A DNA stretch of 64,000 nucleotides, taken from assembly GCA_938038445.1 (NCBI GenBank), contig CALHRZ010000003.1, positions 86,788 through 150,787 on the forward strand, read 5' to 3'. Origin of the DNA: an uncultured bacterium. GTDB taxonomy: Bacteria; Verrucomicrobiota; Kiritimatiellia; CAIKKV01. The notes below the pieces were generated by a model. The model had not been told where the DNA came from, did not search any database, and saw only the letters and a list, made by a program, of their open reading frames with translations. The first letter of the stretch is position 1. Every line of letters starts with the position of its first letter. This document shows positions 44,898 to 52,220 of the stretch, piece after piece. Made by a program: the position numbers and the translations under genes.

Positions 44898-46196
44898 TTA
44901 TTGGGGGGGAGCGACGGCGGTTCGGGCGCATTGGACTTGCCAGCGAAGAATTGCGGCGCGTAATTCGCTTTGGAGGGCCGCATAGCCGGGGTTATGGACG
45001 TGATTGTGGAGTTCGTAGGGGTCGGTGTCGAGGTTGAACAGCATGGTGGGCGTGTTGTCGGGATCTTCCGTTACGAGTTTATAAGGGCCATGCCGAATCA
45101 TTTTCCATCGTTTCATTTCCGAAAAAACGAGGCCGTTGGGGGGCAGGCAAAGGCCGCGGGTGATGGGGGCAAAGGAGCGGCCGGGCAGATGGGCAAGGGG
45201 GGGAAGTCCGAACCAGTCGAGGATGGTGGGAAAGAAATCCACACCGGAGACGAGCGCGTCGGAAACGACGTTTTGGGGGCCGGTGGGGCAACGCACGATC
45301 AGGGGGATCCCGCTGGATTCCTCGTGGGGGAGGCATTTATTTTTGAGACCGTGGCTTCCCTGCATATCGCCGTGATCCGAGGTGAAGACCACGACAGTGT
45401 CGCCGTCAATTCCGAGTTGTTCCAGTTCGTTCAGGAGGCGGCCGACGCAGTGATCCAGATGGGAGACCATTCCGTAGTACAGGCGGAGATATTCGTCGAG
45501 GTTATGTCCATAGCGTTGGTAATCCGGGCATGCGTTGGGAGGCCAGGGGCTTGGGGGGCTCCACGTTCTCGTATAAGGGTCTATTTCCTGGCAGTTCGGC
45601 CTGCGCCGGAGTGTGCGGCCGGCGTAACGGATTGCGAATTCGGGAGGCGGTTGCACGGGGTAATGGGGCGCTTGGTATCCGATAAAAAGCGCGAAGGGTT
45701 GTCGGGCCAATTTGCGCAGCCGTTCGATTGCGAGGGCAGTGGCGGCCTCTTCTCGGTGGACATCAAAGCGATGCGTGCGCCCTTCTTCGTCATAAAAGCA
45801 CACATTCTGATAGAAGCCGTTGTAGCACTGGTAGCCGATGAAATCGCGAAAGCCGCCCCGGAGGGAAGAGGGGATAGGTCCATTGCCTTTTCCCCCGATA
45901 TGCCATTTGCCGACGAAGCTGGTCCGAACTCCGGCGTTTTCCAAAACTTGGGGCAAGGTGGGTACGCCGGGGGGGATGGACGCTTCGTTGTTGTAGGTGC
46001 CCAATTGGGCGTTGTAGAGGCCTGTGAACAGATTGAGGCGGAAGGGCGTACAAATGGGGCAGTTTGAGTACGCGTTCCGAAAGAGGACTCCTTCCGAGGC
46101 GAGGCGGTCCAAATGGGGGGTTTCGATATCGGCCGTTCCCATGCAGCGGAGAGCGAACCGATGCATCTGGTCTGTGAAGATGAAGAGGAGATTCAT
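44898..46196 (-). CDS. Formylglycine-dependent sulfatase (S1)
   Basis: NLLFIFTDQ, CTPFR (CxPxR) followed by FTG, GKWH, PHYP, FTSDHG, DPYEL. Confidence 0.92.
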   Translation of the reverse strand: MNLLFIFTDQMHRFALRCMGTADIETPHLDRLASEGVLFRNAYSNCPICTPFRLNLFTGLYNAQLGTYNNEASIPPGVPTLPQVLENAGVRTSFVGKWHIGGKGNGPIPSSLRGGFRDFIGYQCYNGFYQNVCFYDEEGRTHRFDVHREEAATALAIERLRKLARQPFALFIGYQAPHYPVQPPPEFAIRYAGRTLRRRPNCQEIDPYTRTWSPPSPWPPNACPDYQRYGHNLDEYLRLYYGMVSHLDHCVGRLLNELEQLGIDGDTVVVFTSDHGDMQGSHGLKNKCLPHEESSGIPLIVRCPTGPQNVVSDALVSGVDFFPTILDWFGLPPLAHLPGRSFAPITRGLCLPPNGLVFSEMKRWKMIRHGPYKLVTEDPDNTPTMLFNLDTDPYELHNHVHNPGYAALQSELRAAILRWQVQCARTAVAPPQ

Positions 46197-47150
46197 TTAG
46201 AACGCCGAAGAGGGTGTGCGGGGAGGGGGATAGGTCAACAAAAGACAGGCCGTAACGAAGAGATTGCGCTCATCGGCCGAAATGAGGCGGGAGTCGGGCG
46301 GTTCGATGTCGAGGCTTTCGGCCGTCCACCATCCGAGATTGCCCTTCCGCACTTGGGAACGGGCGAGGAGGGGAAAGAAGTATTCGGACCATTGGGTCCA
46401 ATCTTTTCCGCCGGCGCGCAGCAGGGCATGGGAGAGAAGGATGGCGGTGAGGAGGGGGGAGGGATGTTTTTTCCAGTTGGTGGGGTCTAAGCGACGGATG
46501 GCTTCGAGATGACGCTCCTGGTCCGCGTGGTTTCGTTGGCGGTGGGCGAGGAGGAAAAGGGCGGCCTGCGTTGCGAGGTCGGGAGGCTGGTTGGCCCACG
46601 CTTCGATGATTCGCGGAATAGCGAGCCGGGCCAGATCGGGATTGCCTCCGCTCGTGATCATCGAGTCGACAGCCAGGCTGTGCCATTGGGTTGGGCTTTT
46701 GAATTCGAGGAGTGCGGACTGGGTTTTGAGCGATTCGAGCACGATTGGGATGCGGGTCAGGCCGTAGGCTTCTGAAAGGCACCAGACGATGAGGGCGCGG
46801 CGTTCGGGGGGATGGATCGCTTCGGGAGACGTTTCACGGATAAGGGCGCGCAGTCCTTTGCTGACCGTGAGGCCATGTTCCCACGACAGGGGGGTTTCCC
46901 CTTGCAGGAGAAACGCGAGGAGGGAGACGCTGGTGAGGAGAGCGTGGGATTCGCCGGAGCCCCAGTATCCTTCGGCGTCTTGGTGTTGAGACAACCAGCT
47001 AAGGGCGGCGGGGAGAACGTCGGGGGCCGTCCGCAGGAGGCGGGCAGGGGGGCGCGGGGCAGGTTCCTCTCGTGCTTTGAGGACAAGAGTTGGGAAGAGG
47101 GACGCAATCAGCAACCTGAAAACAATATGGGAGATTCGTATGTTTTTCAT
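46197..47150 (-). CDS. Exported prenyltransferase/squalene-cyclase (QW)-repeat-like protein
   Basis: Signal-like N-terminus and ALSWLSQHQDAEGYW. Start uncertain. Confidence 0.55.
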   Translation of the reverse strand: MKNIRISHIVFRLLIASLFPTLVLKAREEPAPRPPARLLRTAPDVLPAALSWLSQHQDAEGYWGSGESHALLTSVSLLAFLLQGETPLSWEHGLTVSKGLRALIRETSPEAIHPPERRALIVWCLSEAYGLTRIPIVLESLKTQSALLEFKSPTQWHSLAVDSMITSGGNPDLARLAIPRIIEAWANQPPDLATQAALFLLAHRQRNHADQERHLEAIRRLDPTNWKKHPSPLLTAILLSHALLRAGGKDWTQWSEYFFPLLARSQVRKGNLGWWTAESLDIEPPDSRLISADERNLFVTACLLLTYPPPRTPSSAF

Positions 47151-47359
47151 ATGGAGTGGAAATAGAGACAATATAAGCAAATGGCATAAGATTCAATCAA
47201 TCCTGAAAATCGGTGTCGTTCGCTCGCGTGGAGGTCGAGAGATGCAGAATCGAGCATACGGGAAAGGGATGGGATGGGAGTTTTCGGTTTTAGCGCCAAG
47301 GTCTTTCTTGCCGATCATTTCTCGGATCCGAAGACCGGGTTGTTTATGGGACAGAACGA

Positions 47360-47435: not shown

Positions 47436-48578
47436 GTGAAACTCTCGGAGCGCGACGCTTATATCACCCTCAACCAGATCCCTGATATTGGTCCTGTGAC
47501 CGTTCAGACGTTGGCTGAGGCGCTTGGCGGCCGGGTGGCGGAAATACTGGAAATCGAACCTGGGCGTCTTCCTGCTGTTCGGGGGGTTGGGCCGGCGGCC
47601 CTTGAACGGTTGGCGGCTGCTCGCCGCCAAGGAGGGCTGGCGGAGGCTGAGGAAAAACGGGCTGAGATTTTGGGTCTTCGGATCGTCACACCGGTGGATG
47701 CTGGCTATCCCGAACCCCTTCGATCACTTCATGATCCTCCGTTAGCCCTTTATGTGAAGGGGGAATGGAAACAAGAAGATCGTAAAGCCGTCGCATTGGT
47801 AGGATCTCGGCACACCACTTCTTATGGTCGTGAGACCGCCGCGCGTCTGGCTGCTGATTTGGCGCGGCTTGGATATGTTGTTGTGAGCGGACTGGCCCGA
47901 GGGATTGACACTTGGGCGCATCGTGGGGCTCTGGAGGCAGGGGGGCGTACGGTGGCGGTGCTGGGGGGAGGTTTACACGACATCTACCCGCCGGAAAACC
48001 GCGGTTTGGCGGAGGCCATTGCCCGAAGTGGGGCCCTTATTTCCGAATTTCCGATAGGGCGGGAGCCGGACAAGACGACCTTTCCCTATCGAAACCGGCT
48101 GATCAGCGGACTTTCCCAAGCCGTGGTTGTCGTGGAGGCGACACGAACCAGCGGCGCGTTGATCACGGCACGTTTTGCCGCCGATCAGGGCCGGTCGGTA
48201 CTTGCCGTTCCGGGGCGGGTGGACAATCCGCTGGCGCAGGGTCCCCATGATTTGATCCGGCAGGGAGCGCGGCTGGTGGAAGGGGTGGAAGATATTCTGG
48301 ATGAATTGGGTACGCTCTTTCGGGGGGCGGCTTTCTCACTTCGATGCCAAGGAAAGGATGGGGGGGATGCTGGGGTCGGGAGTGAGCCTCTTCGTCTTTT
48401 ACCGGAGGAGCGTTTACTTTTGGAGAGAGTTTCGGAGGAGGAGCGGATCGATGTGGATACGCTAACTCGGCGAAGCGGGCTCTCGGCGGCGGTTGTGGCG
48501 GCTGCGCTTTTGACGCTTGAGATGAAGGGGTTGGTGAGGGTGTTGCCTGGCCGGGTGGTGGAGCGAAGGAATCCCTGA
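47436..48578 (+). CDS. dprA: DNA-processing protein DprA
   Basis: DPPLALYVKG, VGSR, VSGLARGID..AH, RNRLISG, SGALITA, C-terminal winged helix. Confidence 0.95.
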   Translation: MKLSERDAYITLNQIPDIGPVTVQTLAEALGGRVAEILEIEPGRLPAVRGVGPAALERLAAARRQGGLAEAEEKRAEILGLRIVTPVDAGYPEPLRSLHDPPLALYVKGEWKQEDRKAVALVGSRHTTSYGRETAARLAADLARLGYVVVSGLARGIDTWAHRGALEAGGRTVAVLGGGLHDIYPPENRGLAEAIARSGALISEFPIGREPDKTTFPYRNRLISGLSQAVVVVEATRTSGALITARFAADQGRSVLAVPGRVDNPLAQGPHDLIRQGARLVEGVEDILDELGTLFRGAAFSLRCQGKDGGDAGVGSEPLRLLPEERLLLERVSEEERIDVDTLTRRSGLSAAVVAAALLTLEMKGLVRVLPGRVVERRNP

Positions 48579-48684
48579 GGAGAGTTTTTGCGGGGGGTGC
48601 GAGATGTTTTGAGGGAAAAAACAGTTGCTCGAGACGGCGAATTCAAGGAATATTAGCCGTTTTGGGATTTGATGGGACAGTGCA

Positions 48685-51246
48685 ATGGCGAAAAGTCTTG
48701 TAATTGTGGAATCTCCGGCCAAAGCCCGGACGATCGGCAAGATTCTGGGAGAGGAGTACGCGGTCAAGGCTTCCATGGGTCATGTACGGGATTTGCCGGT
48801 TCGGTCGTTGGGTGTGGCGGTCGAGAAAGGATTCGAGCCGCGCTATGAAATTACCCCGGACCGCAAGAAAACGGTTCAGGAATTGCAGGCGGCGGCACGA
48901 CACTGTTCGACGATTTATCTTGCGCCCGATCCCGACCGGGAGGGGGAAGCCATTGCGTGGCACTTGAAAACTCTATTGGAGGATAAGGTTCCGGACGCCG
49001 TTTTTCGGCGTGTGGTATACAACGAGATTACGCCGCGGGCGGTGCGCGAGGCGTTTGCGCATCCGGGCGATCTCAACCTTCGGTTGGTGGAGTCCCAGCA
49101 AGCTCGGCGGATTCTTGATCGGCTGGTGGGGTACAAGGTTAGTCCGCTGCTATGGGGCCGTTTCCAGCGGAATCTGAGCGCCGGTCGGGTGCAAACGGTT
49201 GCCCTCCGGCTTGTTTGCGAGCGGGAAGAGGCGATTCGACAGTTTGTGCCCGAGCCCTACTGGCTGATTGGGGCGCAAGTATGCAAGCGGGTTCCGCCGA
49301 AGGATGCCTTTCCCATTCGGCTCGTTCGCATTCGGGGCGAGAAGGCCGTTATCCAAAGCGCGGAACAGGCGGCGACCATTTGCCGGGAATTGGCGGCGTC
49401 CACTCTGCGGGTGAAGGGGATCGAGACGCGGGAAACTCAGCGGCGGCCGGCCCCTCCGTTCACGACCAGTACGCTGCAGCAGGCGGCCTCGAGGCGGTTT
49501 GGTTATTCCCCTTCGCGGACGATGCGTCTGGCGCAGACATTGTATGAAGGGGTGGACTTGGGGGAAGGGCCGATTGGGCTCATCACATACATGCGGACGG
49601 ATTCGGTTGCGGTGGCACACGAGGCGCAGGAACAGGCGCGGGTATTGGTTGCCCAGAAGTACGGGGCCGATCATCTGCCGGATCGCCCTCCTGTCTATCG
49701 GAGCCGGCACGATGCACAGATGGCCCATGAAGCGATACGGCCGACCGATGTGTCGCGCACGCCCGATTCGCTGCGCAAGCGTCTTAAACCGGACGAATGG
49801 AAGCTGTACACGCTGATTTGGCAGCGCTTTCTGGCCAGTCAGATGGCTCCTGCGCGGTTCGAGCAACGGGTGGTTGAGGTCGAGACGGAGGCGCCGGCGG
49901 GGATGGAGTCGCCCTATCTTTTCCGTACGACGGCGACCCGGCTGGTCTTTCCGGGTTTTCGCGCGGTTTACGAAGAAGAGGAGAAGGATAACGGGCCGGA
50001 AAAAGTGCGTGCTGCTCAACCGGAAAATGCGGGGGCGGGAGAGGAAGAACCCGAGGTGGAGTCCCTGCCGCCCCTCGAACCCGGCGAGCCGCTTGAAGTG
50101 CTTCGGTGGCTGGAAGAGCGGAAGGAGACGCAACCGCCTTCACGGTTTACCGAAGCGACGCTGATTCGGGCTTTGGAGGAGAACGGCGTGGGGCGTCCGA
50201 GCACCTACGCCCAGATTTTGACGACGCTTTACGACCGGCGATACGTTCAACGGGAGGCGCGCAAGCGCGCGCTGGCGCCTACCGAGCTCGGGGAGAAGGT
50301 TTACTCGCATCTCATCGGCCATTTGGCGGAACTTTTCGATATTGGGTTTACGGCGGGGATGGAAGAACAGCTCGACGCGATCGAAGAGGGAAAGATCGGG
50401 TGGCGGGAAATGCTGGCCGATTTTTACAGCCGTCTGCAGAAATGGTTGGAAGCGGCCAAAGGGCCGCCGGCCGAAGAGGATCATGTCCGAAGAGTTCTGG
50501 ACCATTTGGCGCAGGTGGCGCAGTGGCAGGAACCCACAGGTACTCCCCGGGGGCGTCGGAAGAACGATCCGCAATTTGTCGCCTCGATCCGCCGTCAGTT
50601 GGAGCAAGGGCGGCCGATCACGGACCGGCAATACCAGGCATTGATTCGGCTTGCGGTTCGTTATCGGGAGCAGATTCCCGGCTTGGACGAGACCCTTCGG
50701 GGTCTAGGGCAGGAGGCGCATCTTGAAACGCCGCCGGTTCTGCCGCCGGATGATGTTACGCTACGGAAACTCGAATTGCTGAAAGGGGTTCAAACGGATC
50801 CTCCGACGAAACGGCGGGGGCGGACCTATGACGATGCGGCTTTTATTGCGTCCTTAGCGGAGCAGGCGGCGAGGGGGCGGAATCTGTCGGCGGCGCAGGG
50901 TGCTGTGTTGGACCGTCTGTTATGGAAATATGCGGACCGTATTCCGGATTTTGAGAAAGAGCGGGAGTCGTTGGGGTTACAGAAGGTCGAGTCGTCTTCT
51001 GACGTTGCGACGACGGATCCGGAGATTGGGACGATTATGGAACGGCTTTCCCAGTGGACGGACTGGCGGCCGCCTGTGGAACGGCGTGGTCGGACATTTG
51101 ATGACCGGCAGTTTTTTGAATCGTTGTTCCGGCAGTTTCGTGAAAAGGGTCGGTTGAGCCCCCGCCAGATTTCGGCGTTGAAACGGTTAGCGCGCCAATA
51201 TGGGCTGGCGGCTGAGGCGAGGGGGAGAGCCGAATTGCAGACGTGA
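48685..51246 (+). CDS. topA: DNA topoisomerase I with an atypical C-terminal repeat region
   Basis: VIVESPAKA, DPDREGE, SAGRVQ, ITYMRTDS (catalytic Tyr), AHEAIRP, GVGRPSTYA. Confidence 0.96.
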   Translation: MAKSLVIVESPAKARTIGKILGEEYAVKASMGHVRDLPVRSLGVAVEKGFEPRYEITPDRKKTVQELQAAARHCSTIYLAPDPDREGEAIAWHLKTLLEDKVPDAVFRRVVYNEITPRAVREAFAHPGDLNLRLVESQQARRILDRLVGYKVSPLLWGRFQRNLSAGRVQTVALRLVCEREEAIRQFVPEPYWLIGAQVCKRVPPKDAFPIRLVRIRGEKAVIQSAEQAATICRELAASTLRVKGIETRETQRRPAPPFTTSTLQQAASRRFGYSPSRTMRLAQTLYEGVDLGEGPIGLITYMRTDSVAVAHEAQEQARVLVAQKYGADHLPDRPPVYRSRHDAQMAHEAIRPTDVSRTPDSLRKRLKPDEWKLYTLIWQRFLASQMAPARFEQRVVEVETEAPAGMESPYLFRTTATRLVFPGFRAVYEEEEKDNGPEKVRAAQPENAGAGEEEPEVESLPPLEPGEPLEVLRWLEERKETQPPSRFTEATLIRALEENGVGRPSTYAQILTTLYDRRYVQREARKRALAPTELGEKVYSHLIGHLAELFDIGFTAGMEEQLDAIEEGKIGWREMLADFYSRLQKWLEAAKGPPAEEDHVRRVLDHLAQVAQWQEPTGTPRGRRKNDPQFVASIRRQLEQGRPITDRQYQALIRLAVRYREQIPGLDETLRGLGQEAHLETPPVLPPDDVTLRKLELLKGVQTDPPTKRRGRTYDDAAFIASLAEQAARGRNLSAAQGAVLDRLLWKYADRIPDFEKERESLGLQKVESSSDVATTDPEIGTIMERLSQWTDWRPPVERRGRTFDDRQFFESLFRQFREKGRLSPRQISALKRLARQYGLAAEARGRAELQT

Positions 51247-52194
51247 AAAGTCGGCTGGCCCAGGATGCGTTGGCCGGTGCATTTCGCCGTTATTTGCGGA
51301 GTGAAATGAATGCCTCGCCGCATACTGTGGCGGCCTATTGGGGGGATCTGGAGCAATTTGTGCAGATGGTCTGGGAGCAAGGGCGACCGCCTTATCCCTG
51401 GGCCGAGGTGGATCGCGCGATGGCGCGCGCGTTTCTTGCGCATCTGATGCAACAGGGGCTTTCTTCTCCCTCGATTCACCGAAAAATCTCCAGTTTGCGC
51501 CGTTTTTTTCGGTATTTGATAAGGCGAAGCCGGGTGGAGAAGAACCCATTTGCCGGGATATCAGGGCCTGCCCGCGCGTGCCGCCTTCCGAAGGTGCTTT
51601 CGGTGGGGGAGGTTGAGCGGCTGCTGCGTGCTCCGCTCGAGGTGGCCGAGAGGGAGGCGAAGCGGTGTTCGGAGAGACGGCGCTGGGAGGTGGAATATGG
51701 GGGTGTTCGGGACGCCGCGATTTTGGAGGTTTTGTACAGCACGGGGGGGCGGATTCGCGAAATTACGGGGCTGACGGACGGGGCGGTTGACTGGTTGGGG
51801 GGTGTGGTTCGTGTCCGGGGCAAAGGGCGGAAGGAGCGGTTATGTTTGTTGGGGCGGCCCGCGCTGGCGGCGTTGCGGCGGGCAGTGGAGGAGAGGGATC
51901 GGTTGTTTCCGCTTCGGGGGCGGCCGTCGAAAAGGGCTGTGGAACGACCGTTGTTCCTCAACGTGAGGGGGGGTGCCCTTTCGGCCCGGTCGGTGGAGCG
52001 CCAAATGAAGCGTTATTTGGAAGCGGCGGAATTGAATCCCCAACTTTCTCCCCATGTGTTGCGGCATTCTTTTGCGACGCATCTGCTGGATGCCGGGGCG
52101 GACATGCGGAGCGTGCAAGAGCTGCTGGGGCACGCGAGTCTTTCGACGACCCAGATTTATACCCATGTAACGGCGGAACGATTGCGGAAAACCT

Positions 52195-52220
<26 letters not shown>
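51243..52220 (+). CDS. xerC: Tyrosine recombinase XerC/D
   Basis: RDAAILEVLYSTGGR, GKGRKER, HVLRHSFATH, LGH..TTQIYTH; topA-xerC synteny. Confidence 0.85.

Follow-up and report, generated by a model that had tools for sequence, protein, structure and literature searches.

Bacterial DNA topoisomerase I (TopA) carries C-terminal tails that have been described as tandem small repeats, which bind single-stranded DNA (ssDNA) through aromatic stacking and arginine residues (PMC9369019, PMC10969213; these two papers and PMC12445093 are cited here from portions of their text). Such C-terminal arrays raise the efficiency and processivity of DNA relaxation (PMC9369019, PMC10969213, PMC12445093), and TopA stripped of its tail loses relaxation efficiency in the systems studied (PMC12445093, PMC10969213). 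In Escherichia coli and Mycobacterium smegmatis, the TopA tails also contact RNA polymerase (PMC10969213, PMC12445093). Two major types of tail repeat have been distinguished, the zinc-containing Topo_C_ZnRpt and the cysteine-free Topo_C_Rpt, alongside lysine repeats and zinc-finger variants (PMC9369019, PMC10969213), and a study of the chlamydial enzyme has added a SWIB domain to this list (Shen et al., 2025, PMC12445093). Diversity among TopA tails is to be expected. Here, we describe the tail of a TopA encoded on a 64,000-nucleotide stretch of DNA from an uncultured bacterium (the whole stretch analysed is called the window). It is a real, previously uncatalogued type of C-terminal repeat on a known enzyme.

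Judged from its sequence, the window protein is TopA by each feature examined, with a normal and intact catalytic core. The NCBIfam model TIGR01051 (topA_bact) covers amino acids 5–599 at 682.7 bits (cut-off 456.4), and the topoisomerase III models TIGR01056 and NF005829 remain far under their own cut-offs. E9 and D82/D84/E86, the acidic glutamate and the DxDxE motif of the Toprim domain, are invariant across all 22 aligned homologues, as are Y302 and its adjoining residues; from established knowledge of the family, we take Y302 of the ITYMRTDS motif to be the catalytic tyrosine. The topA gene is the sole match to the core family PF01131 in the whole source genome (3.07 Mb, 92.24% complete), and no type IA topoisomerase besides TopA was found there. 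Its product serves as housekeeping topoisomerase I in a host of the phylum of Verrucomicrobia, Lentisphaerae and Kiritimatiellae.

Behind the core follows a tail formed by the last 258 residues (amino acids 596–853, nucleotides 50470–51243), which comprises three units of about 80 amino acids. An earlier note on this DNA, made from its letters alone, had described three cysteine-free repeats with a period of 89–90 residues after the TopA core, in place of zinc ribbons, and this description is borne out. All four cysteines of the protein lie in the core (amino acids 74, 178, 200 and 233); the tail has none, contains three histidines and is not matched by zf-C4_Topoisom. When the tail is compared with itself, the best diagonals fall at offsets of 90, 179 and 89 amino acids, where BLOSUM62 scores summed over 40 residues are 83, 67 and 64, respectively; an offset of 180, in the same register as 179, gives 34, and the remaining offsets give at most 15. 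Pairwise Smith-Waterman scores between units reach 87–90 against shuffle means of 25–27 (z = 11.8–13.8), and none of the 2000 shuffles per unit pair equalled the observed score. The RGR codons begin exactly where the earlier note had placed them, at nucleotides 50548, 50815 and 51085 (amino acids 622, 711 and 801), and two extra RGR triplets occur in the tail at amino acids 730 and 846. Each unit begins one helix upstream of the RGR start given in that note; the folded unit measures about 78–80 amino acids, and acidic linkers of about ten residues lie between the units. In DNA sequence, identity between units is no more than about 49–56%, and the triplication is therefore not a recent duplication.

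The repeat unit is predicted, with confidence, to fold as a small helical bundle with one basic beta-hairpin. AlphaFold2 models were obtained for the whole tail from 38 aligned homologues (mean predicted local distance difference test score, pLDDT, 90.7; predicted template modelling score, pTM, 0.66) and for unit 2 alone from 102 aligned units of 34 genomes (pLDDT 92.6, pTM 0.78). The modelled units 2 and 3 start with an 11-residue helix 1 and a loop with Trp/Phe-x-Pro-Pro, after which comes a beta-hairpin of two strands with the motif (K/R)-G-(K/R)-R-T-(Y/W)-D-D. Helix 2 bears F..S...Q, helix 3 opens with LS.RQ (motif LS.RQ..AL) and closes in a tyrosine, and the short helix 4 follows Q-I-P-D-F. 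In the single-unit model of unit 2 these elements span residues 4–14 (helix), 22–24 and 27–29 (strands), 31–43, 50–62 and 70–77 (helices), with the hairpin RRGRTYDD; in unit 3, numbered by tail residue, they span 184–194 (helix), 203–205 and 208–210 (strands), 212–226, 231–243 and 247–257 (helices), with the hairpin RRGRTFDD. In unit 1, helices are modelled at tail residues 3–13, 33–45, 52–64 and 72–78, and its loop, PRGRRKND, is atypical: it lacks the usual aromatic residue, its strands are not called by DSSP and its pLDDT dips to 69. Apart from this hairpin, the predicted order of secondary-structure elements is common to all three units.

Conservation across the 102 units follows the same plan. 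In the family consensus, helix 1 ends in a conserved Trp-x-Pro-Pro and the basic hairpin reads K-R-G-K-R-T-Y/W-D-D. One serine and one glutamine are invariant in 102 of 102 units, and an aspartate, a phenylalanine, a glutamine and a tyrosine are conserved in at least 90%. Aromatic residues occupy four alignment columns in 92–98% of units, and lysine or arginine occupies seven columns in 66–98%, two to three of the seven within the hairpin. Net charge averages +1.5 in unit 1, +2.5 in unit 2 and +4.5 in unit 3. The corresponding values in the window protein are +3, +1 and +5, unit 3 being the most basic, and the tail as a whole has a net charge of +6 and an isoelectric point of 9.7. The repeats had been expected to look helical and basic; in the AlphaFold2 model they are indeed mostly helical, and they are basic, but only moderately so.

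There is no evidence that the tail is a known domain. No NCBIfam model matches amino acids 596–853 at E ≤ 1, and Pfam yields just four sub-threshold matches, the best of which is DUF7853; no model of either collection exceeds its cut-off on the tail, and no Pfam model does so on any of the 102 single units. The models of the described type IA tails (PF01396, PF08272, PF13368 and PF13342) match neither the window protein (E ≤ 1) nor the 102 units (E ≤ 0.1). Aligned with hhalign against sequences of the same phylum, the repeat profile gives a probability of 0.07% for four C4 zinc ribbons of two genomes (G004 and G008) and of 1.2% for Toprim_Crpt, represented by 11 units of five genomes. In a profile search against the chain sequences of the PDB, the lowest E was 0.22. 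With Foldseek, neither the PDB (best E 0.44 for the three-unit model and 1.8 for a single unit) nor the viral models of BFVD yielded a hit at E ≤ 0.001. The 50 rows listed from the structural scans include no TopA chain, although such an absence does not rule out a shared fold. When TopA families were left out of a feature search of the ESM Atlas, the top score was 0.89, to small viral hypothetical proteins and under the lead threshold of 0.9. The suggestions that the repeats do not resemble zinc ribbons or Topo_C repeats, and that the module is possibly undescribed, thus survive direct comparison with zf-C4_Topoisom and Toprim_C_rpt, neither of which matches, and with family models and solved structures, none of which identifies the module by sequence or by fold.

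Table S1 of Diaz et al. (2022) includes Chlamydiae, with three zinc repeats, and one planctomycete, with three Topo_C_Rpt; Verrucomicrobia, Lentisphaerae and their relatives are absent from its rows. The tail is not mentioned in the available portions of the specialist literature on TopA C-termini (PMC9369019, PMC10969213, PMC12445093); within these portions, the word 'Verrucomicrobia' is absent from the main texts of PMC9369019 and PMC10969213 and occurs once in PMC12445093, apparently not in connection with TopA tails. Full-text literature searches, whose scope did not extend to subscription-only literature, returned no description of such a tail.

Compared with the described systems, the helical tail shares position and organisation with its counterparts and differs from them in predicted fold. 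The E. coli-type zinc ribbons (Topo_C_ZnRpt/zf-C4_Topoisom, PF01396, and Topo_Zn_Ribbon, PF08272) occupy the same site, directly after domain D4, and likewise form tandem small units in three to five copies with conserved aromatic and basic residues. However, each ribbon is a four-stranded sheet locked by zinc (PMC9369019, PMC10969213) of about 40 amino acids, whereas the helical repeat measures about 80 and has no cysteine. The Topo_C_Rpt (Toprim_C_rpt, PF13368) of mycobacterial and other TopA proteins are also cysteine-free tandem repeats behind the core, and their motif G(R/K)(Y/F)GPY and the (K/R)G(K/R)RT(Y/W)DD of the helical repeat can both be read, by eye, as beta-turn motifs of glycine, basic and aromatic residues. 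No GPY of this signature occurs in the tail sequence, and the Topo_C_Rpt fold of a four-stranded antiparallel sheet with a C-terminal helix (PMC10969213) contrasts with the four helices and two-stranded hairpin predicted here by AlphaFold2. The SWIB-type TopA of Chlamydia (NF004966, PMC12445093) comes from the same superphylum, is of similar length (857 amino acids against 853) and has a non-canonical, largely helical tail domain; in it, a single SWIB domain is added to three retained C4 zinc fingers (PMC12445093), whereas the window enzyme has no zinc fingers and three copies of another domain. NF004966 aligns with the window protein over amino acids 1–592 only (573.7 bits, cut-off 868), and no Pfam SWIB match is found on it at E ≤ 1. 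Finally, the Toprim_Crpt (PF13342) of bacterial topoisomerase III are also tandem C-terminal repeats of a type IA enzyme and are present in the same phylum, but belong to another enzyme subfamily (NF006032) and to lineages of the phylum without TopA.

The nearest lead among catalogued families is DUF7853 (PF25251), which scores 13.4 bits (E = 0.12) on the window tail against a gathering cut-off of 27 bits. None of the 102 units passes this cut-off, and five reach E < 0.1, the best at 0.0021. One full-length homologue (P0010) attains 30.9 bits when its matches are summed, with no single stretch passing alone, and a precomputed PF25251 label is attached to one of the 38 homologues. Among 14 control genomes, DUF7853 matches occur in three (E. 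coli, Methanocaldococcus jannaschii and Haloferax volcanii), in one of them over the cut-off. The family thus resembles the repeat in its 81 positions and in a weak, recurrent similarity over the region of helices 2 and 3, and differs in that the window protein and all 102 units stay below its gathering score. This similarity could mark a remote relative or a mere shared helical pattern. The name DUF7853 was not found in the full-text literature; the family is itself of unknown function, and membership would therefore explain nothing about the tail.

The domain is found only in TopA and is close to universal among the TopA proteins of the phylum. A protein search with the tail as query returned 38 homologues, to each of which a hidden Markov model (HMM) built from the three units of the window was applied; every one of the 38 is a TopA containing PF01131 and bears three units or more. 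The few with a named source are labelled Spartobacteria, Lentisphaerae and Kiritimatiellae. A scan of contigs with the tail alignment as query gave at least four loci, the named ones from Victivallaceae and an uncultured Verrucomicrobia bacterium. In the source genome, the 102-unit profile finds exactly the three units of topA and nothing further at E ≤ 1. Of 31 close relatives it matches 29. Each of these shows precisely three matches, which share a single contig and a single open frame (507–1072 amino acids), and no others at E ≤ 0.01.

In a sample of 401 genomes from 185 genera of the phylum, the tail was matched in 254 genomes and 119 genera at E ≤ 0.001, and TIGR01051 in 255 genomes at E ≤ 1e-100, with 252 genomes common to both sets. 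The five discordant genomes were resolved individually. Two (G004 and G008, of families f34 and f36) encode an ordinary TopA with three C4 zinc ribbons, with 12 cysteines in the last 260 amino acids and no helical repeat. In a third (G266), TopA is cut by the end of the locus, with unit 1 still recognisable (profile E = 1.2e-14), and in a fourth (G307) it is truncated at the 5′ end, with three units present. In the fifth (G231), the weak tail match (E = 2.5e-4) is spurious, and the enzyme is a topoisomerase III. After these corrections, the helical tail is present in 254 of the 256 TopA-bearing genomes and zinc ribbons in two, which upholds the proposal of a lineage-specific TopA architecture.

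Beyond the phylum sample, a profile was run against 1.84 billion representative proteins and gave 655 hits at E ≤ 0.001, 253 of them at E ≤ 1e-10. Among the best 150 of the 655, all 70 with enough N-terminal sequence have a TopA core ahead of the repeats. The remaining 80 sequences, none longer than 344 amino acids, start in or just before the repeats, and for them a fragment and a stand-alone protein are not separable. The 28 full-length representatives carry three units in 23 cases, four in three and two in two. In one protein (P0037; 934 amino acids, from a cluster of 26 member sequences) three helical units are followed by a terminal C4 zinc ribbon (amino acids 896–932, 47.8 bits), and both kinds of repeat therefore occupy one functional tail. 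This arrangement, with the ribbon last, differs from the published survey, according to which, in the portion available, mixed tails always have their zinc repeats next to the core (PMC9369019). Nothing credible carrying the repeat was found among viral contigs; two weak loci matched by the tail query at 26% identity are regarded as chance, as they lie beside a large gene on the opposite strand and hold no credible open reading frame (ORF).

In a FastTree phylogeny of the 102 units, units 1, 2 and 3 form separate bipartitions with 31, 32 and 32 of 34 members, respectively, without intruders and with support of 0.80–0.93. Since the unit classes form their own bipartitions, the triplication predates the divergence of the sampled genomes.

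As to function, the helical tail probably substitutes for the other TopA tails and binds nucleic acid without zinc. We infer DNA binding from the position of the tail, its charge, its conserved basic and aromatic residues and the analogy with other TopA tails. It would then stand where other bacteria have C4 zinc ribbons or beta-sheet Topo_C_Rpt, and its likely ligand would be the single-stranded passing strand of underwound DNA. Contacts could be made via the basic and aromatic hairpin and the other conserved basic positions, and the presence of three units would confer multivalency. By these means, the tail may keep the enzyme on negatively supercoiled DNA, with higher relaxation efficiency and processivity as the result. 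A bolder proposal is that the repeat constitutes a new nucleic-acid-binding fold, in which a bundle of three helices bears a basic and aromatic beta-hairpin, and a triplicated, zinc-independent replacement of the zinc-ribbon T-strand grips across the entire phylum; we regard this as quite possible, if short of probable.

Several points weigh against a nucleic-acid-binding role. Bundles made of helices alone are more characteristic of contacts between proteins than of the binding of ssDNA, and the two TopA repeats known to bind ssDNA are built as beta-sheets (PMC10969213). The structural neighbours of the repeat, non-significant as they are, are generic three-helix bundles, among which no DNA-binding domain stands out. 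Net charge is only mildly positive, with unit 2 of the window protein at +1, and the invariant serine and glutamine may fit helix-capping positions of purely structural purpose. Furthermore, the hairpin is not indispensable in each unit, because unit 1 of the window protein is without the hairpin aromatic and the hairpin of unit 2 is deleted in five of the 22 aligned homologues (P0016, P0022, P0030, P0034 and P0035; alignment columns about 840–870). In these five, the HMM match to unit 2 begins at profile position 28–35, and units 1 and 3 retain their hairpins.

Some of these features would equally suit a module that serves mainly in protein-protein contacts and tethers TopA to RNA polymerase or to an SSB, helicase or nucleoid protein, leaving DNA binding to the core. 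The small helical bundle predicted by AlphaFold2, the modest net charge of the units, the protein-binding three-helix bundles that are their nearest (non-significant) structural neighbours and the RNA polymerase contacts reported for the E. coli and M. smegmatis tails (PMC10969213, PMC12445093) are all consistent with such a tether. However, no partner is indicated by any analysis run, and three copies that conserve the same basic and aromatic hairpin are reminiscent of the multivalent grips by which other TopA tails hold nucleic acid. We consider a mainly tethering role rather unlikely; as the two roles are not exclusive in known cases, the choice is partly a matter of emphasis. That the tail has no specific ligand, and acts as a spacer, as a solubility or stability appendage or as an autoregulatory lid on the core, might be suggested by the dispensability of the unit 2 hairpin in some lineages. 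A passive spacer is nevertheless hard to square with position-specific conservation throughout the phylum and with three units each kept as its own orthologous set, and the loss of relaxation efficiency by tail-less TopA in the systems studied (PMC12445093, PMC10969213) argues in the same direction, so that we attach scarcely any probability to a tail without a ligand.

A question apart from function is whether the repeat is in truth a diverged member of a catalogued family, be it a degenerate zinc-ribbon-like domain, a Topo_C_Rpt or a relative of DUF7853. The recurrent weak matches to DUF7853 and its similar length of 81 positions point this way. Set against them are the sub-threshold score of the window tail for DUF7853, the failure of the zinc-ribbon, Topo_C_Rpt and Toprim_Crpt models to match in Pfam, the hhalign probabilities for zinc ribbons and Toprim_Crpt given above, the lack of cysteine, and a helical prediction where the known tails have four-stranded sheets (PMC10969213). 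Such a kinship appears highly improbable to us.

The helical repeat adds a third repeat type, structurally unrelated as far as its predicted fold shows, to TopA, on the sole type IA enzyme of its host, in a phylum that includes abundant gut, soil and marine bacteria. If the tail does bind ssDNA, it would offer a new structural answer to the problem of holding the passing strand while DNA is relaxed, and would serve as a natural test of whether multivalency, aromatic stacking or charge is the tail feature that counts. If the repeat is indeed a new nucleic-acid-binding fold, it would rank as the third major class among the C-terminal repeats of bacterial TopA and would recognise ssDNA in a manner of its own. 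If instead a protein partner is bound, the tail would suggest that supercoil removal is coupled, in this lineage specifically, to another machine. Under either role, the domain merits a Pfam/InterPro family model, such tails being blank in current annotation.

In its type IA enzymes, the phylum seems to be split into TopA-only and topoisomerase III-only lineages. TIGR01051 found no match at E ≤ 1e-100 in 146 of the 401 genomes; one of these (G307) has the truncated TopA mentioned above, which leaves 145. In the six of the 145 that were inspected (G173, G001, G005, G012, G003 and G231), PF01131 matches nothing but a topoisomerase III bearing Toprim_Crpt repeats, and NF006032 exceeds its cut-off in all four of those enzymes tested. 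One whole family within the class of the window genome (f5) has TopA in none of its ten genomes; the window genome is the converse case, with TopA only and no topoisomerase III. The features of the topA locus are collected in Table 1.

Table 1. Coordinates in the window of topA, its domains and repeat units, and the adjoining genes.
Feature	Window position	Strand	Basis or remark
topA, DNA topoisomerase I, 853 aa	48685..51246	+	ORF and TIGR01051
Toprim domain, aa 5-109	48697..49011	+	Pfam PF01751, E = 1.1e-19
Topoisom_bac catalytic core, aa 131-577, with ITYMRTDS motif (Y302)	49075..50415	+	Pfam PF01131, E = 7.7e-117
Helical repeat unit 1, aa 596-675	50470..50709	+	102-unit profile, E = 2.1e-23
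Helical repeat unit 2, aa 687-765	50743..50979	+	102-unit profile, E = 4.7e-27
Helical repeat unit 3, aa 776-853	51010..51243	+	102-unit profile, E = 1.3e-24
dprA	47436-48578		Upstream neighbour of topA
XerC-type tyrosine recombinase	51243-52220		Downstream neighbour of topA

The gene order around topA is dprA, topA and the xerC-type recombinase (47436–52220), followed by a Kdo transferase gene at 52195. The GTG start of the recombinase (51243) overlaps the TGA stop of topA (51244–51246) by four bases. Immediately upstream of dprA, an ORF of 327 amino acids on the minus strand (46197–47180) is without a Pfam family at E ≤ 0.001. Across positions 1–64000, all 32 of the 2-kb windows show a strongly positive GC skew, at values of 0.12 to 0.29 and a cumulative 7.06, and the skew remains positive over stretches of minus-strand genes, such as 44898–47180. 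Strand asymmetry of this kind is unusually strong for a bacterium of about 60% G+C.

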